In this document: positions 1 through 10,995 of the stretch, in pieces
Numbering within the stretch: the stretch's first letter is position 1
Layout of the letters: every line of letters starts with the position of its first letter
Origin: a virus
Taxonomy: Duplodnaviria > Heunggongvirae > Uroviricota > Caudoviricetes
Virus record (IMG/VR): IMGVR_UViG_2579778784_000010
Span: 1 to 10,995 of that record
DNA length: 10,995 nt
Direction: 5' to 3' (one strand)
Notes under the pieces: model-generated
Told to the model about the DNA's origin: nothing
Databases searched by the model: none
Seen by the model: only the letters and a program-made list of their open reading frames with translations
Position numbers and translations under genes: made by a program

Positions 1-420
1 ATGACGGATTATCAGCCATACAGGAAAGGAACTGTGCTTGCCCCAACAGGGCCATGCAATCATCTTCATGTGATTTGTAATGATCCTGTTTATTACCCCG
101 TTAACGATTGTTATTGTGTTTTAGTTGTTAATATTTCTAGTATCAAGGATGGTGTCCCCCACGATCCGTCTTGCGTCTTGAATTCTGGTGATCATCGCTT
201 TATCAAGCATCCAAGTTATGTTGTTTACGCTGAAGCTATAATTTGGCGAGTGGATAACATGGTTAGAAAGCAGCGATCGGGTGAGATTTCTGTTCATGAT
301 GATATGCCAGAAGCTACATTCAATAGAATTCTGGACGGTTTTGATATATCTGATGAAGTTACGCCAAAGAACCTTAAATTTAAAAATAAATATTGCGTAT
401 CATCTATTGATGATGAGTAA
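1..420 (+). CDS. AT-rich accessory gene; MazF/PemK-like (Kid/CcdB fold) putative endoribonuclease toxin, 139 aa
   Basis: ORF starts with ATG at window position 1 (true start or an upstream partner gene may lie outside the window); TAA at 418-420. By-eye alignment to E. coli MazF is colinear: CYCVLVV vs CLCVPCT, CVLNSG vs VVLSG, AIIWR vs SIAWR, C-terminal PEATFNRILDGF vs PEELQLIKAKINVLIG. Very AT-rich with rare codons (AGA, AGG, ATA), unlike neighbouring genes. No search run. Confidence 0.45.
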   Translation: MTDYQPYRKGTVLAPTGPCNHLHVICNDPVYYPVNDCYCVLVVNISSIKDGVPHDPSCVLNSGDHRFIKHPSYVVYAEAIIWRVDNMVRKQRSGEISVHDDMPEATFNRILDGFDISDEVTPKNLKFKNKYCVSSIDDE

Positions 421-459
421 ACAACAGGAATTTTTTCGGTATAGCTTCTGGAGTTTTCT

Positions 460-633
460 ATGGAAGATCAAAAAGCAACCAAGCCACAGGTTAAGTTCGA
501 CACAATGAAAGCATTCGCAGGTATGGGGGCTGCTGTTGAAGTTCTGATGAAGGCTGCTCCTAATGCGTTCACTCACGCTACTGTCTCTGGTAAAGAGCAG
601 CAGGGTAAGCTTCGTCGTCGCAAAGTAGCATGA
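460..633 (+). CDS. small hypothetical protein, 57 aa, basic C-terminus (KLRRRKVA)
   Basis: ATG at 460 preceded by GGAG (450-453) with 6-nt spacing; TGA at 631-633; host-like codon usage; immediately followed by a strong intrinsic terminator. Below the length cutoff of the supplied ORF track. Family not recognised. Confidence 0.45.
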   Translation: MEDQKATKPQVKFDTMKAFAGMGAAVEVLMKAAPNAFTHATVSGKEQQGKLRRRKVA

Positions 634-652
634 TCATAGCTGGTGCTTTTTG

Positions 653-681
653 AAAACCCGCCTTTAGGCGGGTTTTTTCTT
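653..681. terminator. bidirectional Rho-independent terminator
   Basis: Perfect hairpin AAAACCCGCC-TTTA-GGCGGGTTTT (653-676) followed by T-run on plus strand; the complement gives a UUUU run for the minus strand. Sits between convergent genes (stops at 631-633 and 681-683). Confidence 0.65.
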
Positions 682-962
682 TAGTGATGTTCTTTGCCCT
701 TCTGTTTGCCTGTTCTGACCTGTTCCCACTCGATACGTCCTTCTTCTCGTCTTTTGTCTATGTATTCCGCAAGATCCTGAATATTGATGCAACGTTTTGC
801 TTTTTGTGATGTGCCGATGCGATATGTTGGAACGGGCAACTTACAAGCGTTTGCTTTTGCTTCTGCCGTGGCTGGACTCATGCCAAAGTACTTTTGGCTA
901 ACTGCTGAGAGTTCAATGTTAGGGGTATTGAATTCAGCCATCAGTAAAAACAAGGTGTTCAT
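681..962 (-). CDS. PrtN-family (pyocin-activator-like) DNA-binding protein, possible excisionase/regulator, 93 aa
   Basis: ATG at 962 with GGAGAAAATT upstream; the ORF track extends to a GTG at 989 with no good RBS. Motif FGMSPATAEAKANACKLPVPTYRIGTSQKA...DLAEYID matches my recollection of the PrtN family. TAA at 681-683 abuts the terminator. Confidence 0.55.
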   Translation of the reverse strand: MNTLFLLMAEFNTPNIELSAVSQKYFGMSPATAEAKANACKLPVPTYRIGTSQKAKRCINIQDLAEYIDKRREEGRIEWEQVRTGKQKGKEHH

Positions 963-998
963 AATTTTCTCCATCAAAACCGGCTGCACCCGGGAAAA

Positions 999-1571
999 TC
1001 ATAATTCTGTGCTGGTGGCAGGAATTAATTTCTGCCAGATAGCGGAAACATATTTTGCCTGATGACGGGCATCGGCCAGGGCGTTGTGCCGTTCGCCATC
1101 GAAAGGCATGTCTATTTTGGGGTCGAATCCGATGGAACGCCCAAGCGTAACGATCGTGCGTACATCGTGGTCATTCCAGTATGCCCACGGGCAGATTTGT
1201 CCTGCTCGCTCATAAGCTCCACGTAAAATTACGTTGTCGAAGGTGGCCCCGTTACCCCAGACTTTTAAATATTTCGTATTGGCTGCGTGCCGGTTAATGA
1301 AATGATTTAGTTCTGAGAGAGCATCGCTGATCGACAAAGTATCATCAATACAGATTGCAGCTCGTGCTTCAGGGCTTTGTTTCAACCACCACAGGATGGT
1401 ATCGCCGTCAGGTGTAGCTCCTTGCCCCATAGCACTTTCCAGGCTAACAACCGTATAGAATTCTTGTCCGATGTCTCCGGTTTCTGGAGTGAAGAACACC
1501 GCGCCAATGGAAACGATCGGTGCATCCTTATTTTTCCCCATCGTCTCAAGGTCGATCATTAAGTTGTTCAT
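999..1571 (-). CDS. DnaQ-like DEDDh 3'-5' exonuclease, 190 aa
   Basis: Exo motifs: IDLETMG (Exo I), WGNGATFD (Exo II), HNALADARHQAKY (Exo III). ATG at 1569-1571 overlaps upstream TGA (ATGA coupling), with GAGGTG RBS; track alternative is GTG at 1574. Confidence 0.75.
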   Translation of the reverse strand: MNNLMIDLETMGKNKDAPIVSIGAVFFTPETGDIGQEFYTVVSLESAMGQGATPDGDTILWWLKQSPEARAAICIDDTLSISDALSELNHFINRHAANTKYLKVWGNGATFDNVILRGAYERAGQICPWAYWNDHDVRTIVTLGRSIGFDPKIDMPFDGERHNALADARHQAKYVSAIWQKLIPATSTEL

Positions 1572-2386
1572 CACTTCACCTCTTGTGATGGTTTTGCTGC
1601 AAAATACTCGATACCTTTATCCCAGATAGATTTTATGGTCGACCACGTGACTGGCACTTTAATTTCAATACGTCCGCTCCCGTCACAGGTATCGCAATCA
1701 TCATCGCCAAAGCATTCCAGGCAGCTTATAAACGTAGTTTCTGAAAATTCACCGGATAGCACCCCCTTAGCGCCGTTCTCGGCTGTTAGTCTCTTCGGCA
1801 CCATAACCCAACCATCCGGAGTTACCGGAGAGTTGCCAGACAGTGCGTTCTGCAATCGTTCCAGCTTAACGTATTCCTGAACCCTGTTTCCGTCGCACGC
1901 CTGAAGCCATTGCACAGCCTTTTGCGCATCAGTGTGAAAGGCACAAGTGCGACCGTCATCAAATTGCATTTCGTAGAGGTCAGCAACCTGTTTAAACTGC
2001 GTTTGTGGCAACTTGTAAGCCCGGCTTGCAGGTACGGCACTATAGAGCATGGCAGCGCGGCAGGCATTCCAGCCTGTAGCGTATGCAGCCGCTTTGCTGC
2101 TGCCTTCAACTGGCGCATCCTGCCAATACATTTCTTCCGGCACTACCGGCGCTGGAGGGACAGTGTAAAGCTGGTGCGTTCCATCAGGCAGCGAGTGACC
2201 TACATACTCACCGAACCCGTCAACACACATGCTCCCATCTTCAATAATGCATGACGCTACTGGCTCCGCTTCCAGCGATGCCAGAGCAATTTCATAAGCC
2301 CGGCGCTCAATATTGTCTCGAACGTCCAGGCTGCCTATGCGTTCTTTGATTTCTTTAATCATTTCTTTGTCGGTTAAAGTTGTCAT
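1571..2386 (-). CDS. hypothetical phage early protein, 271 aa, with C-terminal Cys cluster (possible zinc ribbon)
   Basis: ATG at 2386 with GAGGA RBS; C-terminus CLECFGDDDCDTCDGSGRIEI has CxxC...CxxCxGxG spacing. Coding-like codon usage; operon context. Confidence 0.6.
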   Translation of the reverse strand: MTTLTDKEMIKEIKERIGSLDVRDNIERRAYEIALASLEAEPVASCIIEDGSMCVDGFGEYVGHSLPDGTHQLYTVPPAPVVPEEMYWQDAPVEGSSKAAAYATGWNACRAAMLYSAVPASRAYKLPQTQFKQVADLYEMQFDDGRTCAFHTDAQKAVQWLQACDGNRVQEYVKLERLQNALSGNSPVTPDGWVMVPKRLTAENGAKGVLSGEFSETTFISCLECFGDDDCDTCDGSGRIEIKVPVTWSTIKSIWDKGIEYFAAKPSQEVK

Positions 2387-2389
2387 GTG

Positions 2390-2677
2390 TTAGTCCTCAT
2401 CCACTTCAACGCCATCTTTCAGCGTGATGCCGTGCCAATCATCAGCCCAACTGGTTAGCCCTGGCGCATCAATGCTAGGCATATAAACGCTTGCAGTGTG
2501 GTAGCCCTTATCGTTATCAATGCTGGCAACGTGCTCGCCGTTGTATGCGCTCAGCGTGTCCAGGACGCTATAAAACTTTCCTCCGGCTGCCCTGAAATCC
2601 TTTACAGCCTTCACAAGGCGATTCCACGCTTTTTCCTGTTCTGGCGTCAGGTCGATTAATTCCTGCAAAGTTGCCAT
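2390..2677 (-). CDS. hypothetical phage early protein, 95 aa, acidic C-terminus
   Basis: ATG at 2677 preceded by AAGGAG (8-nt spacing); TAA at 2390-2392; 3-nt gap to the next gene. Confidence 0.6.
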   Translation of the reverse strand: MATLQELIDLTPEQEKAWNRLVKAVKDFRAAGGKFYSVLDTLSAYNGEHVASIDNDKGYHTASVYMPSIDAPGLTSWADDWHGITLKDGVEVDED

Positions 2678-2678
2678 A

Positions 2679-3173
2679 TCACTCTCCTTTGATGCGAATG
2701 CCAGTGGTACTCATTCTCCTGATTTCCCAGAGCACACGAGGAACACCACCGTTTCCGACCGGATCGCGTTTACTCCGCAGGGCGACGCTTGATTCCGCCC
2801 AGCTTTTTCTTGGAGGAAGCTCTTTCACACGAACAAAACCAGCTGCGCGAAGAGATGCTCCTGATTCATCTGCCTGGGTGTACGTAATACAACGTTGATA
2901 ACCCATAGCCTTTGCTGCCCGCCAGACAGCACCATAAAGCGCGCTGTTAGCGTTGCGTTCTCCTGTGGTACATGTGCGATTTACTTCAAGCGTTAATCCA
3001 TCGTCCAAATGTCGTGCAACAGGTCGACCAGCTGTCGCCACACCTATCAATTCTCCGGCATTATTTCTCAGACCAATGCTGAATTTATGCCCCACTGGTG
3101 GTTTATTGTGTCGGTGGTGCTGTGCGATAAATTCCTGCGCCGCTTTCAGCGTTATAGGTGAAATGACCATCAC
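2679..3173 (-). CDS. hypothetical phage early protein, about 163-164 aa
   Basis: Start GTG 3173 or ATG 3170 (ATGA overlap with upstream stop), AAGGAGG upstream; TGA at 2679-2681. Family not recognised. Confidence 0.55.
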   Translation of the reverse strand: MMVISPITLKAAQEFIAQHHRHNKPPVGHKFSIGLRNNAGELIGVATAGRPVARHLDDGLTLEVNRTCTTGERNANSALYGAVWRAAKAMGYQRCITYTQADESGASLRAAGFVRVKELPPRKSWAESSVALRSKRDPVGNGGVPRVLWEIRRMSTTGIRIKGE

Positions 3174-3706
3174 TCAGACTCCTCCTTGATGCCAGCGGCG
3201 CGGGAATCATTCCATCGCTTTACTTCTTCACGAATTACGTCAATGCATTCTTTCGAATCCATTAGGTAATCTTCATCAAAAAGACGTTCCTGTTCGTTTT
3301 CTATCGCAACAATGATTGCTTCAACTAATTTTTGTGCCTGAGAATCACTTTCTAACTCTGCAATGCGCTTACTCCCATCCGAGATAACACCTTCGTAATA
3401 CACACGCTGCTCGTTGAGTTTTGATTTTGTCTCCTCAAGCTCAACTCTCAGCTTCCCTACCGTTAGCGCAATATCCTCGTTCTCCTGGTCGCGGAGTTTG
3501 ATGTATTGCTGTTTTTCGTCCAGCTCATCCAACAGCCCGGCGATAATGTCCACTTCCCGATGACGGATTTCTCGCTTAAACGCCGCTAAAGCTGCATCAC
3601 AATCCTGTTCAGCGTTTGGACTGTCTGGCTTTTCCTGATACCACGCCAGAGTCGATTGATAGTTTTGTGCTGCCTTACGCAACGCCTGATAGTCAATCTC
3701 GCTCAC
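3170..3706 (-). CDS. coiled-coil early-left protein, possibly Ead/Ea22-like, 178 aa
   Basis: GTG at 3706 preceded by AAGGAGG (6-nt spacing); the longer track ORF (to 4054) has a junk-like N-terminus overlapping two other genes. Sequence rich in E/K/L/Q heptad-like segments. Family assignment from memory only. Confidence 0.5.
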   Translation of the reverse strand: MSEIDYQALRKAAQNYQSTLAWYQEKPDSPNAEQDCDAALAAFKREIRHREVDIIAGLLDELDEKQQYIKLRDQENEDIALTVGKLRVELEETKSKLNEQRVYYEGVISDGSKRIAELESDSQAQKLVEAIIVAIENEQERLFDEDYLMDSKECIDVIREEVKRWNDSRAAGIKEESE

Positions 3707-3941
3707 TGGTGCCTCCTTTACGGATCTGCGCTGCGATGCACGAAAAAAAAGACTCTCGCGTATGACAGTTAAGAGCTGGTGCGAACGCCGCGTTAAGAAC
3801 GGCGGCATCACAGCCGTCATCAATATAGAGCGCAATTTTTTTCTCCAGGCGCGCTTTGGCTTCCTGCAACTGCATACCCCGGCACGCACGCGGGATATAC
3901 TCAGCAATTTGAGCGATAGATTTTTCGTTCTGTTTAAACAT
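3693..3941 (-). CDS. hypothetical small phage protein, 82 aa
   Basis: ATG at 3941 with GAGGTG RBS; good codon usage; overlaps the downstream gene by 14 nt; contains an A8/T8 homopolymer (3743-3750). Confidence 0.5.
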   Translation of the reverse strand: MFKQNEKSIAQIAEYIPRACRGMQLQEAKARLEKKIALYIDDGCDAAVLNAAFAPALNCHTRESFFSCIAAQIRKGGTSERD

Positions 3942-4137
3942 GCTTCACCTCGATAGGCTTGATGGTATCGATCAGCAGTCGGCGGCGAGTATTTTCTGCA
4001 AAGTGGCGGCGTCCGGTTTCTTTGTGGTAAAACTCGTTTTTTCCGACGACCCACATCCGCTTTGTCTGGTGCAGTTTTTTTACCTGCGGACCGTCTCGGG
4101 TGATAACAATTCCTGTATGAGTTTTTATCACGCTCAT
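3934..4137 (-). CDS. hypothetical small basic phage protein, 67 aa
   Basis: ATG at 4137 with GGAGAA RBS; 8-nt overlap with the next gene; operon context. Confidence 0.45.
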   Translation of the reverse strand: MSVIKTHTGIVITRDGPQVKKLHQTKRMWVVGKNEFYHKETGRRHFAENTRRRLLIDTIKPIEVKHV

Positions 4138-4496
4138 TTTTTATTCTCCGGTGCTTTCGGCATTACTGCCCAGTGAGTGATATTGACGTTTTCAAGGTCC
4201 CCGACCTGAAATGTCCACTGCCATTCTCCGGTTTCTTTTTGTCCCCAGGTGTACCAGAGAGAACGCCAGCCAATTAGCCAGCCTTCTCCGTTAGCATCAA
4301 ATAACAGAACACTTTCATTTGCTGGCGGCAGTTCAGCTGACACTGGTATTATTTTGTTTTCCAGTGCCGCACATTTAGCTTCAAGCGCATCGAATTTACG
4401 TACCAGGTACTCAGCATTTGTTTCATTCACTTTCAGATCTCGTGGTACACATTTCCCGCGAAGAAACCCTTCCATTTCGAAAACATTCATGCGCAT
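4134..4496 (-). CDS. yfdS: YfdS-like phage protein (DUF551-type as I recall), 120 aa
   Basis: Tryptophan-rich C-terminal segment (GWLIGWRSLWYTWGQKETGEWQW); length equals K-12 YfdS (120 aa) and it sits directly after the YfdR-like gene as in CPS-53. ATG at 4496 overlaps the YfdR-like stop. Symbol by recalled synteny and length, not by search. Confidence 0.6.
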   Translation of the reverse strand: MRMNVFEMEGFLRGKCVPRDLKVNETNAEYLVRKFDALEAKCAALENKIIPVSAELPPANESVLLFDANGEGWLIGWRSLWYTWGQKETGEWQWTFQVGDLENVNITHWAVMPKAPENKK

Positions 4497-5023
4497 GTGC
4501 GTAACTCCGATAACTCGTTAAAGCGCTCCATAAACATCCCGTAGGCATGGCTCGGAGCCAGTGGAATAACTTTGAACATTTCTGTTGCCGGGATACCTTC
4601 CAGTACTGGCCAGAAAGAGCCATCATCAAGCCCGAGATCGCGGCGTTCGGTTGCCAGCATGATGAGATCGGCATATTTCACAGGCGTGCTCATAACCGGG
4701 GGTAACCCGTATTTCTCACGGATTACGGCGTCTATTTTTTCTTCCATCCGTTTATAGTCAGGAAGAAGGCGTTTCAGTGGAGCGGGAATGTCCTGGCAAT
4801 ACGCTTCTGTTGCATCATGCATTAACGCTTCAAAAGCAAATTCCTGCGGCACCAGCTGGCTGCAAAGCACCGCATGCTGGGCGACACTGTAGAAGTGTGA
4901 AAGATGTCCTGCAAAGCGACAGATATTTGAAAGGGAAACCGCGATATCGTTAATCACGATGTCGTCTTTATTTATCTTGTCATAATAAAAATGCTTCCCG
5001 GAAAAAGTTTTAATAAATGACAT
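4487..5023 (-). CDS. yfdR: HD-domain phosphohydrolase, YfdR-like (5'-deoxynucleotidase family), 178 aa
   Basis: ATG at 5023 with GGAGAA RBS (the track ORF starts further upstream at 5086). HD signature (H...HDATEAY...D). 178 aa equals K-12 YfdR. Confidence 0.7.
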   Translation of the reverse strand: MSFIKTFSGKHFYYDKINKDDIVINDIAVSLSNICRFAGHLSHFYSVAQHAVLCSQLVPQEFAFEALMHDATEAYCQDIPAPLKRLLPDYKRMEEKIDAVIREKYGLPPVMSTPVKYADLIMLATERRDLGLDDGSFWPVLEGIPATEMFKVIPLAPSHAYGMFMERFNELSELRTCA

Positions 5024-5151
5024 TTCGTTCTCCACTTTATATGCGCTGCACCGCGCTGAATTCGGGTAAAAGGAATCCCGCACCATCCGGCGATTATTGA
5101 GTTAATTACGTTTCCATAAATGCCCCCGCAGGGGCATTTGCAGTAATGAAA

Positions 5152-5976
5152 TCAGGCGGTGAAAGTACCAATAAAGGTTTCTACTTTGCTGTCTTTGAAT
5201 TTCTCAACAAGCAGATCACGAAATTCGTTAGCCATTTCTTCCTGCACTGCTTCCAGCTGAATAATGCGCAGAACCAGTACAGGACGATCGCCAGTGATAA
5301 CGCTGAGGCGTAATTTAAATGGACGTTCTTTCAGACCTTCAAACGGAACGCATTTAAATTCAAATGCCACTGGCATAATATCTTTGGTTTTCGCTTCGAC
5401 AGACTCCATCAGGGAGCGTTTGCCGCTGAAGTCATTATCTTCAAAATCAGCGGTCTGGTTTGCTTCAATCGTGATTTTACGGACAGCCGCAGCCGCTTTT
5501 GTTGCCTGAATAGCGTCACCATTAGCATCAAAGCCCACAAGGTAGTCGGCCCAGTCTTCAATCCATTCTGCCAGTGACTTCTGGGAATGACGCTCGCCGT
5601 TAACAGACAACAGAGCAGAGAACGGTGCTGTCTTTTTCAGTTTGAGAGTGGCGGTGTTATCTGCGTGACCTGGTTCATCAATAGTACCCAGGTTAAGTAC
5701 ACTGACGGCACGCATATTATCAGCATCGATAAAGCAGCGGGTGCCTTCATCTGCAAGATCTTTAGAATAACGGGTAAAGTCATCGATGCTGGCAGTGGAA
5801 AGCGCACCACGGAAACGGAAGCGATTTAAATTAAATTTTTCCAGATCATGAATGAGGAAATTCTCGGGCAATGCCACAGCATCGGCACCAATCTTACTGA
5901 TAATTTCATTAACACCCTGAGCAGAAATAAGGGCATGGATTTGATTAATTGCGGTTGCGTCTAAGTTCTGAGACAT
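5152..5976 (-). CDS. yfdQ: YfdQ-like protein (DUF2303-type as I recall), 274 aa
   Basis: ATG at 5976 with GAGGA RBS; TGA at 5152-5154. 274 aa equals K-12 YfdQ; position between the YfdP-like and YfdR-like genes matches CPS-53. Confidence 0.7.
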
Positions 5977-6041
5977 AATAAGTCCTCACTATATAAAGAT
6001 ATTCAGTGATGAGATAAATAATCAGTTAATTAAGAACGATA

Positions 6042-6404
6042 TTAATGACCTGCTGCGCGTAGTTTTCCGTCAGGTTCACCGGCAAGAGTCAGTAATTGTC
6101 CCTGGTCTTCCTGCAGAATAGTCAGACGACCACCGCGATTGACATACATCGGCGTTTCGGTGGTGTCTTCTTCGGAAATTTTCCCGCGGTTAGTCGGGCG
6201 AACATATGAGAGTTTGTGTTTGATTTTCACACGGTTCTCATCAAATGGTTCGATTTCCAGGTTGAGTGAGACCTTACCTTTGGTTTTCGTGTTCATCACA
6301 CCGGAAGCGACTTCACTGAGAACTGCGCCGATTTTGGTTTCAAATACGCCGCCGTCCAGCTCCCCGATAAATGCCTGCACATCAGTACTGCGTTCGCTAG
6401 CCAT
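6042..6404 (-). CDS. yfdP: YfdP-like protein, 120 aa
   Basis: ATG at 6404 with GAGGAG RBS 7 nt upstream. The 226-aa track ORF extends upstream through GC-rich non-coding sequence and a terminator hairpin, so is rejected. 120 aa equals K-12 YfdP. Confidence 0.6.
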   Translation of the reverse strand: MASERSTDVQAFIGELDGGVFETKIGAVLSEVASGVMNTKTKGKVSLNLEIEPFDENRVKIKHKLSYVRPTNRGKISEEDTTETPMYVNRGGRLTILQEDQGQLLTLAGEPDGKLRAAGH

Positions 6405-6872
6405 TTTGCTGCTCCTCATCATATCGACCCTGCAAGGTCGGTTGGTTTCTCCACAAAACAGAGAAGAACACCTGCGGTGGCAGCCGCCCGGATGGATTGG
6501 GTTATGAGCCCGTCGTCCGGTGATGCTCTTCTCTGTTTTGTAAAAAGAGCGGTACCAGCCGGAAGCAAGGGTACAAGCTGGTACCGCCAGGACTACACAC
6601 AGCATAAAGTTGTGGTGCCGGGTGCCTCCCGGTGCCTGGCGAAGGTTGCACACCAGGCGGGTGGGTATCCACAGAAGGTCGACTGTCAGCCTCAACCTTA
6701 ACCCGCGTGCGCTGAGCCGCATTCACCACAACGCTAAGGATTCTCTCTGGTTGAAAATACTTAGCTGTTATGTGCCTGCTTTTAGCCACATCAGGCGAGG
6801 TGGGCCTGGTTATTCCCCAACAACAAGGATTCGGCTAATCTGGATGACTCTGTTCTTAGAGGGGATAATTAA
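6405..6872 (-). other. GC-rich structured untranslated leader of the early-left operon (candidate regulatory RNA region)
   Basis: No ORF with a credible start or RBS; open in several frames at once (GC-rich). Perfect 15-bp inverted repeat 6453-6467/6527-6541, 11-bp inverted repeat 6549-6559/6577-6587, and adjacent short hairpins at 6628-6660. Confidence 0.4.
6541..6587 (-). terminator. intrinsic terminator in early-left leader (tL-like)
   Basis: Minus-strand RNA: GCGGUACCAGC-(17 nt loop)-GCUGGUACCGC followed by UCUUUUUA; about 140 nt upstream of the YfdP-like start. Confidence 0.45.
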
Positions 6873-7385
6873 ATGGGAGCGATTTATGTTAAACGTTTGA
6901 TTCTGTCGGTAGCACTGATAATACCGATAGCATCCAATGCTTCTGATGCTTTGAACCAGCCGAGCAGTAGTCTAAATGATGGTGTTGAGACTTTTTTTAT
7001 TTCCTGCTTTGATATGCCTCAGGAAACAACTACTGATATGGACGCTTGTCAGAGAGTTCAGTTAGCTCAGGTTAGTTGGGTTAAGAATAAGTATTCGGTG
7101 GCCGCCCTGAATCGTTTGAAACAAGACAACAAGGATGATCCACAGCGTCTGCAGGAATTAACTGCTTCTTTTAACGCGGAAAGTGAAGCTTGGACAGAAT
7201 TAATTGAGAAAGCGTCAAAGTCCGTCCAGGTTGATTATGCAGGAGGAACTATAGCTGGCACTGCAGTTGCATCACGTCAAATTGGTCTTCTGGAATTACA
7301 ATCCCACGATATCTGGGAGCACTGGCTACGATTCGAGGACTCAACTCCTCCTCTTTTGCCAGAACCAAAGTTCAAATCTGAGTAA
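6873..7385 (+). CDS. secreted DUF1311/LprI-like (YecT-like) protein, 170 aa; opposite-strand moron
   Basis: ATG at 6873 with AGAGGGG upstream. N-terminal signal peptide (KR, hydrophobic core LILSVALIIPIA, ASNA/SDA cleavage-like site), two Cys, then W...Y...DYAGGTIAGTAVASR...DIW pattern I associate with DUF1311. AT-rich with rare codons; own terminator downstream. Confidence 0.65.
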   Translation: MGAIYVKRLILSVALIIPIASNASDALNQPSSSLNDGVETFFISCFDMPQETTTDMDACQRVQLAQVSWVKNKYSVAALNRLKQDNKDDPQRLQELTASFNAESEAWTELIEKASKSVQVDYAGGTIAGTAVASRQIGLLELQSHDIWEHWLRFEDSTPPLLPEPKFKSE

Positions 7386-7410
7386 TAAGTCATCCAGATT
7401 GTTAAAGAGC

Positions 7411-7436
7411 GAAGCGTCCTATAGGGCGCTTTTTTG
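7411..7436 (+). terminator. Rho-independent terminator of the moron
   Basis: Hairpin GAAGCGTCC-TATA-GGGCGCTT followed by TTTTT, about 25 nt after the TAA at 7383-7385. Confidence 0.55.
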
Positions 7437-7594
7437 TTGCTAACGAATCATCCTGGACTTCATATGCCCCAGGCGGCTACTTCGTGGTCGTCCTGACTGT
7501 TCGTTTTTGACATTTACTGACCGCTTACGACACATGCACCATGCACCGTGTTGCAACCAGATTTTGTTGTAATCCTGTAGTTGGTCTGGAACAA

Positions 7595-7623
7595 AAGATA
7601 AAATTAAAATGCGAGATGTGCAA
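7595..7623 (-). promoter_or_regulatory. PL-like leftward early promoter
   Basis: On minus strand: -35 TTGCAC (complement of 7618-7623), 17-nt spacer, -10 TATCTT (complement of 7595-7600); the -35 lies inside an operator repeat. Confidence 0.35.
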
Positions 7624-7646
7624 GCAATATTTTGCGAGATGTGCAA
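7609..7646. promoter_or_regulatory. OL-like operator pair
   Basis: Two copies of a 15-bp pseudo-palindrome, ATGCGAGATGTGCAA (7609-7623) and TTGCGAGATGTGCAA (7632-7646), sharing an identical 14-bp core and fitting TTGCG-N5-YGCAA; the same half-sites recur at OR. Confidence 0.5.
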
Positions 7647-7656
7647 AATGATGGGT

Positions 7657-7682
7657 GATAAAAAGCCACCTTTCGGTGGCCG
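7657..7682 (-). terminator. intrinsic terminator downstream of cI
   Basis: Minus-strand hairpin GCCACC-GAAA-GGUGGC followed by UUUUUA, about 20 nt after the cI stop (7701-7703). Confidence 0.5.
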
Positions 7683-7700
7683 ATGGATGGGATATTGAAG

Positions 7701-8393
7701 TTAATTATGTCTCTTAAGGGTTTGCGACTGACTGATTAAGACCTTTCCAAAGACCATGAATCGGTGTTCGTTTTCGCTAGTAATTCCCCATTCACGGTAA
7801 ATCTGGTTATCAGAAATCACCAGCAGTTTGTCAGGAATCATTTGAAGTCTTTTAACGTATATTTTGTCATCAAAACCAAAGACATATATACCATCACCAT
7901 CAAACTGATTGATGCTGACATCAACGAAGATGAGATCTCCTGGCTCAATGGTTGGACACATACTGTCCCCACGAACGTTGATAACTTTGATGTGATTGGC
8001 TGGTCGTCCGCCGAACATTGATACAGCATTATCAGTTCTGTATTCGATGGCATGAATCACATCAATGACATCACCGCCCTGGATAAGGCCATTTCCCGCA
8101 CTGGCACTGATATCCAGCATTTCAATACGGAACACATCCTTCACCTGCGCAACATCCTCATCATTACTGTTTTTATATACAGTATTACTTTTGAGGGCAG
8201 AGGTAAAGAGATCAGCAATATCAACACCTAAGCTCTTGGCAATATTACTCAGTGTTTGTTCGGTAAATTGTTTCTGCTTACCCGTTTCTAAGCGCGAGAT
8301 GTTCGCCGCATCTACTCCTATTGCTTCAGCGAGATCGGCGATTTTCATGTTCTTCGCTTGGCGAAGTTGTCTGACTCGGTTTCCTATGTTCAT
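7701..8393 (-). CDS. cI: cI-like prophage repressor (XRE-type HTH plus S24 LexA-like peptidase), 230 aa
   Basis: N-terminal HTH (IADLAEAIGVDAANISRLETGK); C-terminal S24 motifs GDSM (Ser) and YVKRL (Lys); Ala-Gly candidate autocleavage site (SASAGNG). Divergent from the cro-like gene with operators between. ATG at 8393 has no SD. Confidence 0.85.
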   Translation of the reverse strand: MNIGNRVRQLRQAKNMKIADLAEAIGVDAANISRLETGKQKQFTEQTLSNIAKSLGVDIADLFTSALKSNTVYKNSNDEDVAQVKDVFRIEMLDISASAGNGLIQGGDVIDVIHAIEYRTDNAVSMFGGRPANHIKVINVRGDSMCPTIEPGDLIFVDVSINQFDGDGIYVFGFDDKIYVKRLQMIPDKLLVISDNQIYREWGITSENEHRFMVFGKVLISQSQTLKRHN

Positions 8394-8399
8394 GCGTTT

Positions 8400-8428
8400 A
8401 TTACATTTCTTTATTGCGTGATAAGCAA
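8400..8428 (-). promoter_or_regulatory. PRM-like promoter for leaderless cI transcript
   Basis: Minus strand: -35 TTGCTT (complement of 8423-8428), 17-nt spacer, -10 TGTAAT (complement of 8400-8405) ending 6 nt before the cI ATG, so transcription would begin at or next to the start codon. The -35 overlaps operator 8414-8428. Confidence 0.4.
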
Positions 8429-8476
8429 ATCAACTTGCGCAAAACACTTGCGTGAAATAACATGCATAACGCGCAA
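8414..8476. promoter_or_regulatory. OR-like operator region
   Basis: TTGCGTGATAAGCAA (8414-8428), palindrome TTGCGCAA (8435-8442), ATGCATAACGCGCAA (8462-8476); same TTGCG/CGCAA half-sites as OL. Confidence 0.45.
8435..8463 (+). promoter_or_regulatory. PR-like rightward promoter
   Basis: -35 TTGCGC (8435-8440), 17-nt spacer, -10 TAACAT (8458-8463); followed by GGAGGG RBS and the cro-like ATG at 8491. Confidence 0.35.
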
Positions 8477-8490
8477 TATTTGGAGGGTAT

Positions 8491-8751
8491 ATGCAATCAC
8501 CATTACGAAATGTGCGTAAGGCGCATGGTTTCACTTTGCAGCATGTTGCTGCGGGTGTTCAAGTCAATCCAGCGACGTTGAGTCGTATTGAGAGGCTGGA
8601 ACAGATTCCATCTATCGAGCTTGCAGAACGTTTAGCCAATTTTTTTAAGGGTGAAATCAGCGAAATGCAGATTCTTTATCCGGCACGTTTTCAATCTAGC
8701 CAAAACCAGAATGGGTTTAAACCACAGGAACAGGAGGTGAACCGTGGGTAA
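8491..8751 (+). CDS. cro: Cro-like HTH (XRE family) regulator, 86 aa
   Basis: First gene rightward of the operator region, divergent from cI; HTH segment FTLQHVAAGVQVNPATLSRIER; GGAGGG RBS. Confidence 0.65.
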   Translation: MQSPLRNVRKAHGFTLQHVAAGVQVNPATLSRIERLEQIPSIELAERLANFFKGEISEMQILYPARFQSSQNQNGFKPQEQEVNRG

Positions 8752-9295
8752 GCATCACTGGAAAGTAGACAAACAGCCTGAGTGGTTCGTGAAAGCTGTC
8801 AGAAAAACTATCGCAGCGTTGCCTGGGGGTTACGCTGAAGCTGCTGACTGGCTGGATGTAACAGAGAACGCATTATTTAACCGCCTTCGTGCCGATGGCG
8901 ATCAGATTTTCCCGCTGGGATGGGCAATGGTTTTACAGCGTGCTGCTGGCACTCACTACATTGCGGATGCTGTCGCACAGTCTGCTGGTGGGGTGTTTGT
9001 ATCGCTTCCTGAAATTGAGGAAGTAGAGAACGCAGATATAAACCAGCGCCTGCTGGAAGTCATCGAACAGATCGGGAGTTACTCAAAGCAGATTCGTTCG
9101 GCAATCGAAGATGGGGTAGTGGAGCCACACGAGCAGACAGCAATTAATGATGAATTGTATCTGTCAATTTCGAAGCTCCAGGAGCATGCGGCACTGGTCT
9201 ACAAAATTTTCTGCGTTCCAGAAAAGAGTGACGCCCGCGAGTGTGCAGCTCCGGGCGTCGTGGCGTTTTGTGTCTGTGGAGAAACTAACGCATGA
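8744..9295 (+). CDS. CII-like regulatory protein (phage 186 CII / CP76 type), 183 aa
   Basis: GTG at 8744 with AGGAGGTGA RBS, overlapping the cro-like stop. Segment TENALFNRLRADGDQIFPLGWAMVL resembles my recollection of 186 CII (NVQTLRNKLNPEQPHQFTPPELWLL). Position after cro fits. Confidence 0.55.
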   Translation: MGKHHWKVDKQPEWFVKAVRKTIAALPGGYAEAADWLDVTENALFNRLRADGDQIFPLGWAMVLQRAAGTHYIADAVAQSAGGVFVSLPEIEEVENADINQRLLEVIEQIGSYSKQIRSAIEDGVVEPHEQTAINDELYLSISKLQEHAALVYKIFCVPEKSDARECAAPGVVAFCVCGETNA

Positions 9296-10128
9296 ACAGT
9301 TTAACGGCAAATAACCGTTTGTCGCAACAGCTGGTGGTCAGTGTCGCTGCACACCTGTTGTTACGGCATGAATGCAGATTACCAAATCACCTGGCTGTAA
9401 GTAACCACAGAGAACTTTACCTGACTGTGGGGGGCGAGTTGTGCAGGAACTTAACCGCTGGTTTCGTGACGGAAGAGGACTTTATGTTCATGTTATTCGT
9501 TGGGAGCCAGAAACACAGCGCGTTATCTATCTTCGCAAAGACTACCCGCATGAGTGCTTTAGTCCTTTGTGGAAATTCAGGCGTGATTTTGTTGAGTGTG
9601 AAGGACCACCAGCACATTGATTCTGCCATTCCGGGACGTTACACTGTTCAGGCACCTTATAAAGCGGGTGCCGGGATTGGCGTCCTGGAAATGTTATCGG
9701 CGATATATGACGCGCCAGCGTCTTTTTTATCGTCTGCGTCTGCGCACACCCAAATTATGGTGGGCTGGACGGGGGCACTGAAAGGTGCGCCGGTTTCCGA
9801 TAACGCCGGTTACGCCAACCCCGTTCAGTTCACCACCAGCGAAATTGGCGTTTCCGGTGGTGAAGGTAATTCACTGTTATCGGAGGCTGCCATCATGGCT
9901 ACTGTCCCAGCCCTCACTCGTCTGAATGATGAAGACTTACATAAACTCAGTTATGTAACAACTGCACTACGTGCTCTGCGCAAGGTAACTCTTTCGGATC
10001 CGCAGGCGCATCAGGTTCTGGTAGAAACCCTTCTTAACTTGCAGGCTGAACGTATCCGTTTGGCGGATAAGGCTAATTTTCATATTCACCGTCTCCTGAA
10101 TATCAGCGGAGGGCATCGTCATGCTTAA
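9292..10128 (+). CDS. hypothetical protein, 278 aa (N-terminal third of doubtful coding quality)
   Basis: ATG at 9292 overlaps the upstream stop (ATGA) with GGAGAA upstream. From about 9620 the codon usage is clearly coding-like; upstream of that it is poorer, and an alternative frame (9441-9620) is also open. Confidence 0.45.
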   Translation: MNSLTANNRLSQQLVVSVAAHLLLRHECRLPNHLAVSNHRELYLTVGGELCRNLTAGFVTEEDFMFMLFVGSQKHSALSIFAKTTRMSALVLCGNSGVILLSVKDHQHIDSAIPGRYTVQAPYKAGAGIGVLEMLSAIYDAPASFLSSASAHTQIMVGWTGALKGAPVSDNAGYANPVQFTTSEIGVSGGEGNSLLSEAAIMATVPALTRLNDEDLHKLSYVTTALRALRKVTLSDPQAHQVLVETLLNLQAERIRLADKANFHIHRLLNISGGHRHA

Positions 10129-10357
10129 TCCGTTGATCCTCAATATTTGCCGTTTGCTTCAGCGCAAAAAAACATCAATTCCTACAGTTGGGCAGTGGTA
10201 CACCACGCCTGCAGGGCATGTTCTACGTGTTAGCCTGGTTGACCGTGAATGTCAGAAGGTGGTTTGTGAACCGCTGGGCCGTAATTACCGCGTCAGTATG
10301 CCGCTTATAGCCTTTCGCTCCGGAAAAAACATGAAGCATCTCGGAGGTGCAGCATGA
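10121..10357 (+). CDS. hypothetical small protein, 78 aa (possibly DUF4222-like)
   Basis: ATG at 10121 with GGAGGG RBS, overlapping the upstream stop; its stop overlaps the next start (ATGA). Family guess is weak. Confidence 0.45.
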   Translation: MLNPLILNICRLLQRKKTSIPTVGQWYTTPAGHVLRVSLVDRECQKVVCEPLGRNYRVSMPLIAFRSGKNMKHLGGAA

Positions 10358-10995
10358 GTATGGAGCTGATGGTTAAAGCGATGAAAATTCGAGTGGGTAA
10401 TCCATTGCGAAAACTGGTTCTGATCAAGCTGGCTGATAATGCCAGCGATCAGGGTGAGTGCTGGCCCAGCTACCAGCATATTGCTGACCAGTGCGAGATT
10501 AGCAAACGTTCTGTGATGAATCATATTGCGGCCCTTTGTGAGTCCGGGCTGGTAAAAAAAGTCACCCGGAAAGGTGAAAAAGGTAACTCAAGTAATATCT
10601 ATCTCCTTCATCTTGATGGTGCAGGAGATTCACTAGGGGGTAGTGCAAATAATTCACTATCTGGTGCAGCAAATTCACCAGGTAGTGCAGGAGTTGCACC
10701 AGGGGGTAGTGCAGGAGATTCACCCAGAACCAGTCACTCTTTTGAACCAGTCAAAGAACCAGTCAATGAACCAATAGCTGTTGGTGCATCTGCTGATGAG
10801 TCTGTGCGAGTTCGTTCAAACCGACCGGAATACTCTCCGGAGTTTGAGCAGGCATGGCTGGCCTATCCCAAACGTGCTGGTGGCAATTCAAAATCTGCAG
10901 CCTTCAAAGCCTGGAAAGCCCGTTTGAATGAGGGGGTAAACCCCGAAACCATGCTGGAAGGTGTGAAACGCTACGCGGGCTGGGTATCTGCGATG
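10354..10995 (+). CDS. replication initiator, lambda-O-like (3' partial; continues past window end)
   Basis: ATG at 10354 with GGAGGTG RBS. N-terminal winged-helix-like segment (PLRKLVLIKLADNASDQGECWPSYQHIADQCEISKRSVMNHIAALCESGLV) resembles the lambda O N-terminus; Gly/Ser/Ala-rich linker is encoded by direct repeats, as with lambda ori in O. Confidence 0.65.
   Translation, partial: MSMELMVKAMKIRVGNPLRKLVLIKLADNASDQGECWPSYQHIADQCEISKRSVMNHIAALCESGLVKKVTRKGEKGNSSNIYLLHLDGAGDSLGGSANNSLSGAANSPGSAGVAPGGSAGDSPRTSHSFEPVKEPVNEPIAVGASADESVRVRSNRPEYSPEFEQAWLAYPKRAGGNSKSAAFKAWKARLNEGVNPETMLEGVKRYAGWVSAM
10618..10777 (+). repeat. iteron-like direct repeats inside the O-like gene (candidate replication origin)
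   Basis: About five imperfect 21-24-bp repeats with core GGTAGTGCAGGAGATTCAC (10618-10725), then four 11-bp repeats GAACCAGTCA(A) (10726-10777). Confidence 0.55.

Follow-up and report, generated by a model that had tools for sequence, protein, structure and literature searches.

We report on the leader of the early-left operon in a lambdoid prophage of Escherichia coli. The window, that is, the whole stretch of DNA analysed here, comprises the 10,995 nt at positions 1 to 10,995 of the tailed-phage record IMGVR_UViG_2579778784_000010 (IMG/VR; Caudoviricetes). Positions 6405-6872, which separate the first early-left gene yfdP from an antisense moron gene, are the promoter-distal part of an untranslated leader of about 1.2 kb that belongs to the PL operon and holds conserved, structured and covarying non-coding RNA modules. 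Judged from its sequence, the module at 6762-6540 belongs to the STnc100/PasD family of small RNAs (sRNAs) of prophages, of which it is a divergent representative in a new genomic context, with a seed that resembles the PasD seed. A hairpin at 6541-6444 follows it, and a third RNA (7504-7443) lies far upstream close to PL. All three are read on the minus strand, for which we give coordinates from high to low. Taken together we consider it rather probable that this is the PL leader of an N-less prophage of the SfV/SfIV/ST64B type, in which an STnc100/PasD-like module and a leader hairpin are combined and read-through is provided for from upstream.

An STnc100/PasD-family module upstream of yfdP

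STnc100 (RF02076) is a multicopy prophage sRNA of E. coli and Salmonella and overlaps the Hfq-bound EcOnc27 downstream of stx2B. PasD1 and PasD2 are Hfq-dependent prophage sRNAs of strain E2348/69 of enteropathogenic E. coli (EPEC) (Pearl Mizrahi 2021), and PasD1 has been validated by Northern blotting and by RIL-seq, in which interacting RNAs are ligated and sequenced (PMC8550237). A common ancestor of PasD and STnc100 has been argued for in a preprint, the seeds of the two being different (Zhu, Shabalina and Storz 2026). The link between both RNAs has thus already been proposed.

At the gathering thresholds of Rfam, a scan of the window returned only C4 and isrK, both elsewhere, and a permissive scan of 1.6 kb was needed to find STnc100. 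The RF02076 match extends over 6762-6540, covers model positions 1-206 and scores 45.4 bits (E = 3.3e-8), with few non-canonical pairs in the full-length alignment. Canonical STnc100 copies reach 81-208 bits on the same model, the early-left copies in SfIV, ST64B, sal3 and phiES15 35-41 bits, and PasD1 of EPEC 37.7 bits. Since the window copy scores higher than PasD1, it stands no further from the family model than a member that has been proven. The original prediction had allowed for an unrecognised structured RNA in the leader. For the module at 6762-6540 this has to be given up, as the module is related to a curated Rfam family, albeit below its threshold; the description does apply to 6541-6444, which matches no Rfam family, and to 7504-7443, which has no Rfam match even in the laxest mode.

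The module begins with a multi-helix 5′ domain (6732-6609; −58 kcal/mol, z = −2.7). A closing helix (6732-6724/6617-6609) bounds this domain, and inside it are the hairpins H4 (6658-6634, 8 bp) and H5 (6632-6618, CCGGG/AGGCA/CCCGG). These are the two adjacent short hairpins that had been noticed earlier, and they are real. The closing helix shares UGGUG/CACCA with STnc100 and covaries between a GCAUGGUG/CACCAUGC type and a GUUGUGGUG/CACCACAAC type. In 22 variants the CCGGGAGGCACCCGG hairpin (H5) is invariant and its flanks are nearly so; H4 is present in all 22, with unrelated sequences. Formal pair counts were restricted to the closing helix and H5, MAFFT having left the variable middle of the family out of register. 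For these two helices 90.9% of the positions are paired in the 22 variants, and 21 double changes are found as compared with 9.9 in shuffles. The window type and the canonical type are bridged by forms found in IMG/VR contigs.

After the 5′ domain comes a single-stranded, seed-like stretch, GCUGUGUGUAGUCCUGGC (6603-6586), whose sequence is conserved between the window, ST64B, phiES15 and distant variants, although the terminator stems that follow it are unrelated. The RIL-seq-derived seed of PasD with its flank reads UGUGAG-UUCUGGC against UGUGUAG-UCCUGGC in the window, which has one extra base in the seed, and ST64B carries UGUGAAG at the seed position. The module ends in an intrinsic terminator (6588-6542) with a stem of 12-13 bp (6588-6548) and the U tract CUUUUU (6547-6542). 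It folds with −23.7 kcal/mol (z = −4.8) and none of 200 shuffles folds as well, which bears out the terminator that had been proposed before the first early-left gene. Its position is kept in ST64B and phiES15, again with unrelated stems.

STnc100 and the window module are alike in the full-length alignment, in the closing helix, in the CCGGGAGGCACCCGG hairpin and in the variable hairpin before it. Both end in a single-stranded stretch and an intrinsic terminator, and both reside in lambdoid prophages, co-oriented with an operon that requires antitermination. They differ in the seed and in the first hairpin, which is GCGGCU...GCGC in the window and CCCCC...GGGG in STnc100. They also differ in their site: the canonical copies follow stx2B, stx1B or a Q-tRNA cassette, whereas the window copy is found early-left. 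Furthermore, the window type lacks the A/T-rich −10-like box (TTGTTAAAAAAT) that canonical copies carry just before the closing helix, and it has no convergent AsxR/AgvB partner at the terminator, such as canonical STnc100 often has. PasD belongs to the same superfamily, and its seed, save for the extra base, and the start of its terminator align with those of the window module. Unlike the latter, PasD carries its own promoter-like TTGACT-N18-TAAAAA just before the closing helix, and its body is shorter. It is a late-region RNA with Q, lpxR and holin genes nearby; the window copy lies elsewhere and has a different terminator.

Two further arrangements were seen among the canonical copies. In the loci L014 (2001-2260) and L015 (1490-1764), STnc100 is directly followed by a convergent AsxR or AgvB anti-sRNA with which it shares the terminator region. 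Between the Q-tRNA cassette and the lysis genes of phage vB_EcoS-640R1 (L016 1018-1675), STnc100 occurs three times in tandem, with scores of 138, 30 and 132 bits.

A structured 5′ domain, a single-stranded seed and a terminator are the usual anatomy of Hfq-type sRNAs. We therefore infer that the module is active as an sRNA, and this anatomy is our chief ground for expecting it to act in trans. Since no promoter-like box precedes the closing helix, the RNA would be a product of the PL leader that arises by termination or processing. In 66 loci the same order is found on one strand, the element next to PL first and then, 440-1130 nt downstream, the sRNA-like module.

Upstream of the module we found a conserved block of 32 nt, CCACCTCGCCTGATGTGGCTAAAAGCAGGCAC (6803-6772). 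The block keeps its place beside differing left flanks, precedes another short body with a terminator in contig L028, and occurs alone in phages of Klebsiella and Hafnia. Its GG-N10-GC spacing is similar to that of a sigma-54 −24/−12 element; the match is weak, and the RNA would start at about 6762. That the block might be a promoter is only a guess.

Non-coding nature of the gap and the hairpin before yfdP

The GC content is 0.55-0.58 over 6301-6750 as compared with 0.41-0.46 on either side, and the minus strand from 6872 to 6395 folds with z = −6.6, a value that is not equalled by any of 100 shuffles. Minus-strand folding and shuffling thus confirm a GC-rich structured stretch with its hairpins, terminator and inverted repeat at the places where they had been reported. 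That the gap holds no credible open reading frame (ORF) likewise stands. Mechanical ORFs are present, namely an in-frame extension of yfdP by 318 nt, a 95-aa GTG ORF and a 49-aa TTG ORF. None of the gap ORFs has a match in Pfam, and the only PHROG match is the function-less phrog_33599 for the 49-aa ORF. Substitutions relative to ST64B are distributed over the codon phases as 19/16/20, and the gaps in this comparison are 1, 1, 19, 1, 2, 2, 1 and 1 nt long. Upstream of yfdP the open frame extends over 318 nt in the window and over 15 nt in phiNP. As there is no phase bias, the indels break the frame and the ORFs are without family support, the gap is non-coding. In RefSeq the Prokaryotic Genome Annotation Pipeline (PGAP) covers the RNA modules with a pseudogene, a "frameshifted hypothetical protein" (6729-6419 on the minus strand; also at 2432-2742 of L231), and SfIV_34/35 and gp36 of mEp460 are ORFs annotated over the same region, on strands that differ between the phages. 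These calls are best read as artefacts.

The leader hairpin (6541-6444) has a conserved inner domain enclosed by a long stem, with GGAGAAAC after it. It starts at the last base of the terminator tail and ends 29 nt before the ribosome-binding site (RBS) of the first gene. A perfect 15-bp inverted repeat had been described here. Its arms (6454-6468/6527-6541) are indeed perfect and they enclose 58 nt instead of 59. The stem extends to 20-23 bp, with −49.1 kcal/mol and z = −8.8. In an alignment of eight divergent sequences (A3), 95.8% of the pair positions are paired and six pairs are compensatory. A U-G pair is kept in seven of the eight sequences, hence the RNA strand is the leftward one. The hairpin is a covarying RNA without a described family, and, together with the closing helix of the sRNA module, the alignments show that the stems are conserved and covary in related elements, as the original prediction would have it.

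In different phages the leader hairpin precedes different first genes, with hairpins of varying sequence in between. Stx2c phages, cdtI and mEp460 keep only the terminator and the leader hairpin, which makes the latter an independent leader element. In the window it is followed by a small hairpin (6439-6424) and by the RBS GAGGAG (6415-6410) upstream of the yfdP start codon (6404-6402). The small hairpin alone is no better than shuffles (z = −0.5), and at its place other phages have hairpins of different sequence. The CU-rich 3′ arm of the leader stem is complementary to GAGGAG. In the lambda N leader an RNase III site lies in a long duplex, and there as here the duplex is upstream of the RBS of the first gene. 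The long and perfect stem suggests such a site in the window as well. We therefore regard the hairpin as a putative processing, stability or translation-control element for read-through transcripts, possibly a substrate of RNase III.

In E. coli K-12 the prophage CPS-53 (L332 5586-6009) keeps yfdP and its RBS, corresponding to window positions 6423-6000. None of the leader RNA modules is present in CPS-53, and K-12 transcriptomes are therefore uninformative on them. In total, 2790 of 5426 complete E. coli genomes match parts of this leader.

The PL-leader element, boxA and proposed read-through without N

Since a terminator that is predicted to be strong separates PL from every early-left gene, some means of read-through is required. 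The earlier failure to find an N-like protein is borne out, as no N family of Pfam or PHROG is represented among the ORFs of the window, and the same holds for the ORFs that come first in six related phages. Few ORFs carry a basic N-terminal patch, and those that do are not shared between loci. SfII, SfV and SfIV lack N, cII and cIII according to the SfIV genome paper (PMC3851460).

When the whole leader was compared with related phages by blast, a conserved island was found at 7508-7444. It corresponds to an RNA element of 62 nt (7504-7443) with the helices P1, P2 and P3, an invariant AGGAC loop on P2, an invariant linker CACGAAGUAGCC, and AUGA after P3. We took the structure from comparative data and not from the single-sequence fold, whose inner pairing differs. 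In an alignment of 10 sequences (A1) all 130 pair positions are paired and 10 of the 13 pairs are compensatory. With 89 sequences (A2) the values are 95.1% and 11 of 14 pairs, and 295 double changes stand against 99±9 in shuffles, a number reached in none of 500. This is a conserved, covarying RNA without a described family. A full-text search of the literature for its core sequence gave only unrelated primers. A hammerhead-like reading was dropped because the junction lengths are unfit, and a reading as a CsrA site was dropped because the second GGA is part of a covarying pair.

The element occurs in SfIV, ST64B, phiNP, SPN3UB and mEp237 as well as in phages of Klebsiella, Pantoea, Yersinia and Pectobacterium, directly after PL or after a co-oriented promoter. 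Its core is present in at least 120 contigs of IMG/VR, and the element occurs at 99 sites in one-per-species genomes, mostly of Enterobacterales; a few sites in unrelated metagenome-assembled genomes may be contamination. There is one copy per phage, on the left side only, the exception being an IMG/VR contig (L109) with a second, divergent copy at 965-1040 on the minus strand (44 bits), about 650 nt downstream of the first. Of 123 promoter-like sites (at least 9 of 12 positions), 113 have a −10 box whose end lies 5-24 nt ahead of P1. Thus, the element normally forms the 5′ end of the transcript. Strong sense terminators are concentrated behind the element, where their density over 1.2 kb is 8.6 times that found 1.5-3.9 kb further on, and the antisense density is unchanged. 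The first strong sense terminator often follows only about 240 nt after the element. In the long PL leaders of phiNP (L006, about 2745-2760) and 118970_sal3 (L018, about 2415-2430) we also noted a tRNA T-arm-like sequence, GGTTCGATTCCAG, upstream of the sRNA-like module.

The put RNA of phage HK022 acts in cis on RNA polymerase, at the zinc-binding domain of the β′ subunit, and suppresses termination. The original prediction had considered the hairpins at 6628-6660 as a put-like pair. This idea is wrong for these hairpins, which are H4 and H5 of the STnc100/PasD sRNA fold and lie about 930 nt from the PL start. For a covariance model of put we recovered putL and putR from an unannotated record. 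Even with the filters switched off and matches up to E<=10 allowed, this model detects no site in the leader, and over 58 kb including the window it finds only the sites of HK022 itself. Conversely, the model of the PL-leader element has no match in HK022. There are nevertheless likenesses between put and the PL-leader element. Both are folded RNAs of about 60-70 nt at the start of the PL transcript in an N-less lambdoid phage, both have many invariant unpaired bases and terminators downstream, and they share the short words CGAAC and CAGGAUGA. They differ in their architecture, a three-helix junction in the PL-leader element and two bulged stem-loops in put. Each early operon of HK022 has a single put copy, with putL beginning at +3 relative to PL and putR some 270 nt from PR (PMC9378689); the PL-leader element is without a rightward copy and in the window lies about 85 nt from the start. 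For 7504-7443 a put-like function is a working hypothesis that we hold only tentatively.

Further downstream a hairpin (7432-7411) is followed by an rrn-type boxA, GCTCTTTAACAA (7410-7399), an arrangement which is likewise found in rrn boxB-boxA. The match comprises 12 of 12 positions and is the single exact one in the window; with one mismatch allowed, shuffles average 0.10 matches. A weak match to the rrn-leader RNA StyR-44 falls on the same site. The boxA is common to the window and SfIV and is not present in ST64B or phiNP. Read on the plus strand, the hairpin 7432-7411 is the terminator-like site of the moron. The leader transcript would therefore carry a boxA (CGCTCTTTAACAA-like) as is characteristic of N/nut or rrn antitermination. 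In its position between PL and the first early-left gene the leader resembles the lambda nutL/N leader. Unlike lambda, however, the window has neither an N gene nor a boxB-type hairpin with a GNRA-like pentaloop. Going by what is known of Nus-boxA complexes, the boxA would suit the protection of the 1.2-kb untranslated leader from Rho.

The surroundings of the leader are those of an immunity region of the SfV/SfIV/ST64B type, and the DNA of the window is 100% identical to many RefSeq chromosomes. Two exact 14-nt direct repeats, TGCGAGATGTGCAA (7610-7623 and 7633-7646), are operator-like, and a third copy (79%) lies in the gap between cI and cro (8415-8428). By eye we read a −35 hexamer TTGCAC (7623-7618), a 17-nt spacer and a −10 hexamer TATCTT (7600-7595). 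The repeats and hexamers therefore place a leftward PL with its OL operators at 7650-7595, in agreement with the position near 7600 presumed before, and the layout is homologous to PL of phiNP and ST64B. Upstream are cI (8393-7701, minus strand), whose terminator-like hairpin (7681-7664) lies just before PL, cro (8491-8751, plus strand) and a CII-like gene (8744-9295, plus strand). Downstream, the antisense moron (6873-7385, plus strand) codes for an LprI-like protein of 170 aa with a predicted signal peptide, which matches phrog_7681 at 1e-120 and LprI of Pfam weakly and is a hypothetical protein in RefSeq. The PL transcript must traverse this moron untranslated before it reaches yfdP (6404-6042) and yfdQ (DUF2303; 5976-5152), both on the minus strand.

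Two published sRNAs were ruled out as the identity of the region, since svsR (PMC12803456) maps to the 3′ end of cI and HnrS (PMC13502914) to late genes. svsR limits phage infection and is located at the cI 3′ end in the SfV-like prophage NC-SV (PMC12803456). A homologue of this C0293-like sRNA may sit in the window at the cI 3′ end and terminator hairpin 7681-7664 (region 7664-7780, minus strand). On the other side of the immunity region, isrK (63.7 bits in Rfam) and the C4 antisense RNA (79.8 bits) lie back to back at 9652-9840 on the plus strand, inside an Ash-family ORF (9292-10128). The same pair is found in ST64B and mEp460 and resembles the P1 c4/ant and Gifsy-1 IsrK/AntQ arrangements.

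Proposed mechanism, alternative readings and significance

We suggest that a transcript initiated at PL would cross the PL-leader element, boxA, the moron in antisense and then the sRNA module. After induction, termination or processing of the PL leader would yield the sRNA, chiefly as the 3′ end of this transcript, and once released it could act in trans as an Hfq-type base-pairing RNA. The RNA at 7504-7443, the boxA or both could let RNA polymerase pass the terminator 6588-6542, and the transcripts that read through would carry the hairpin 6541-6444 with its putative role in processing, stability or translation control. Upstream of the gap, the RNA at 7504-7443 and the rrn-type boxA at 7410-7399 are in our view the most likely providers of read-through. 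About 900 bases upstream, just behind PL, 7504-7443 would be the best candidate for an antiterminator that replaces N, and a better one than the hairpins inside the gap. Its position, its distribution and the density of terminators after it fit a cis-acting antiterminator and do not prove one. It is conceivable, if doubtful, that the element represents a new class of cis-acting processive antiterminators, analogous but unrelated to put, which would be made in prophages of the SfV/SfIV/ST64B type and in many further N-less lambdoid prophages of Enterobacterales and would let RNA polymerase pass 6588-6542 and similar terminators elsewhere, with the sRNA released from the terminating fraction.

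A number of observations weigh against the proposed reading. The module scores below the gathering score of RF02076 (45.4 versus 47 bits), and this is why PGAP calls no RNA here and a pseudogene instead. No convincing sigma-70 promoter is found directly upstream of the module, and the loop of the terminator is unusually large (15-17 nt), which may limit its efficiency and is the reason why a consensus terminator scan missed the site. Canonical STnc100 and PasD sit in late operons, the window copy between PL and yfdP. With respect to the PL-leader element, some 80 inserted nt displace it in the window from the 5′ end to about +85, a strong sense terminator is found in only 29% of the loci under strict criteria, and the element has no counterpart in the rightward operon, unlike put and nut. 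Moreover, mEp460 and phiES15 have the downstream modules without the element.

The module 6762-6540 could also act in cis alone, as a cassette (attenuator or terminator) that forms a "moron boundary", shields the early-left genes from stray transcription and gates PL read-through, with an RNA that has no function in trans. Such a cassette would account for the missing sigma-70 promoter and the missing canonical A/T-rich box of the window type. It would also agree with the finding that the family is always in antitermination-dependent operons beside moron insertions (late after stx/Q-tRNA, here at PL) and that the terminator is the one feature whose position is conserved while its sequence changes. 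A plain terminator, however, needs neither a conserved multi-helix domain of 120 nt nor a single-stranded stretch, this stretch resembles the PasD seed, and PasD and STnc100/EcOnc27 are abundant Hfq-bound RNAs (PMC8550237, PMC12711010, PMC5331693). We regard the pure cis cassette as unlikely. An action of the hairpins 6628-6660 in cis, like HK022 put, by which the terminator 6541-6587 would be passed, is very improbable. It is true that they lie 30-70 nt upstream of this terminator in a phage without N and that the near invariance of H5 and its flanks would suit a contact with a protein or RNA polymerase. But the put covariance model finds nothing in the leader, putL is at +3 and not some 930 nt from PL, and the same hairpins recur in PasD and in the Q-dependent late operons of Stx phages, where a put role is unneeded.

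The PL-leader element, for its part, might be something other than an antiterminator. It could stabilise the 5′ end, bind a protein as nut or CsrA sites do, sense a ligand or make up the body of a short PL RNA. In favour of this, most phages have it right at the start of the transcript, a first strong sense terminator often comes about 240 nt later and would give a short RNA, the rightward operon lacks a copy, and the invariant AGGAC loop resembles a CsrA-type GGA loop. We nevertheless think it rather improbable. About 25 invariant unpaired bases are more than stabilisation alone would call for, PL must express recombination, kil and excision genes beyond terminators, and the second GGA is paired in a covarying manner. 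Finally, the gap could be a real or decayed protein gene, in view of the PGAP frameshifted protein (6729-6419), the ORFs annotated in SfIV (SfIV_34/35) and mEp460, the phrog_33599 match of the 49-aa ORF and a possible extended YfdP of 226 aa. This is scarcely credible, as substitutions are even over the codon phases, indels of 1, 2 and 19 nt occur, annotators pick differing strands and frames per phage and the in-frame extension is not conserved, whereas compensatory base changes keep the RNA helices and the Rfam match is significant.

The analysis corrects the annotation of this region, as what is a frameshifted pseudogene in RefSeq and a set of hypothetical proteins in phages is a stretch that codes for RNA. 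The STnc100/PasD family, with its canonical copies in late operons, is now found to reach into the early-left operon as well. With an early-left copy that has a PasD-like seed, a prophage sRNA may be made at induction rather than in the lysogen. Furthermore, an old gap becomes testable, namely how the N-less phages SfII, SfV, SfIV and ST64B pass their early-left terminators. One terminator and two upstream candidates, the covarying 62-nt RNA and the rrn-type boxA, are now defined.

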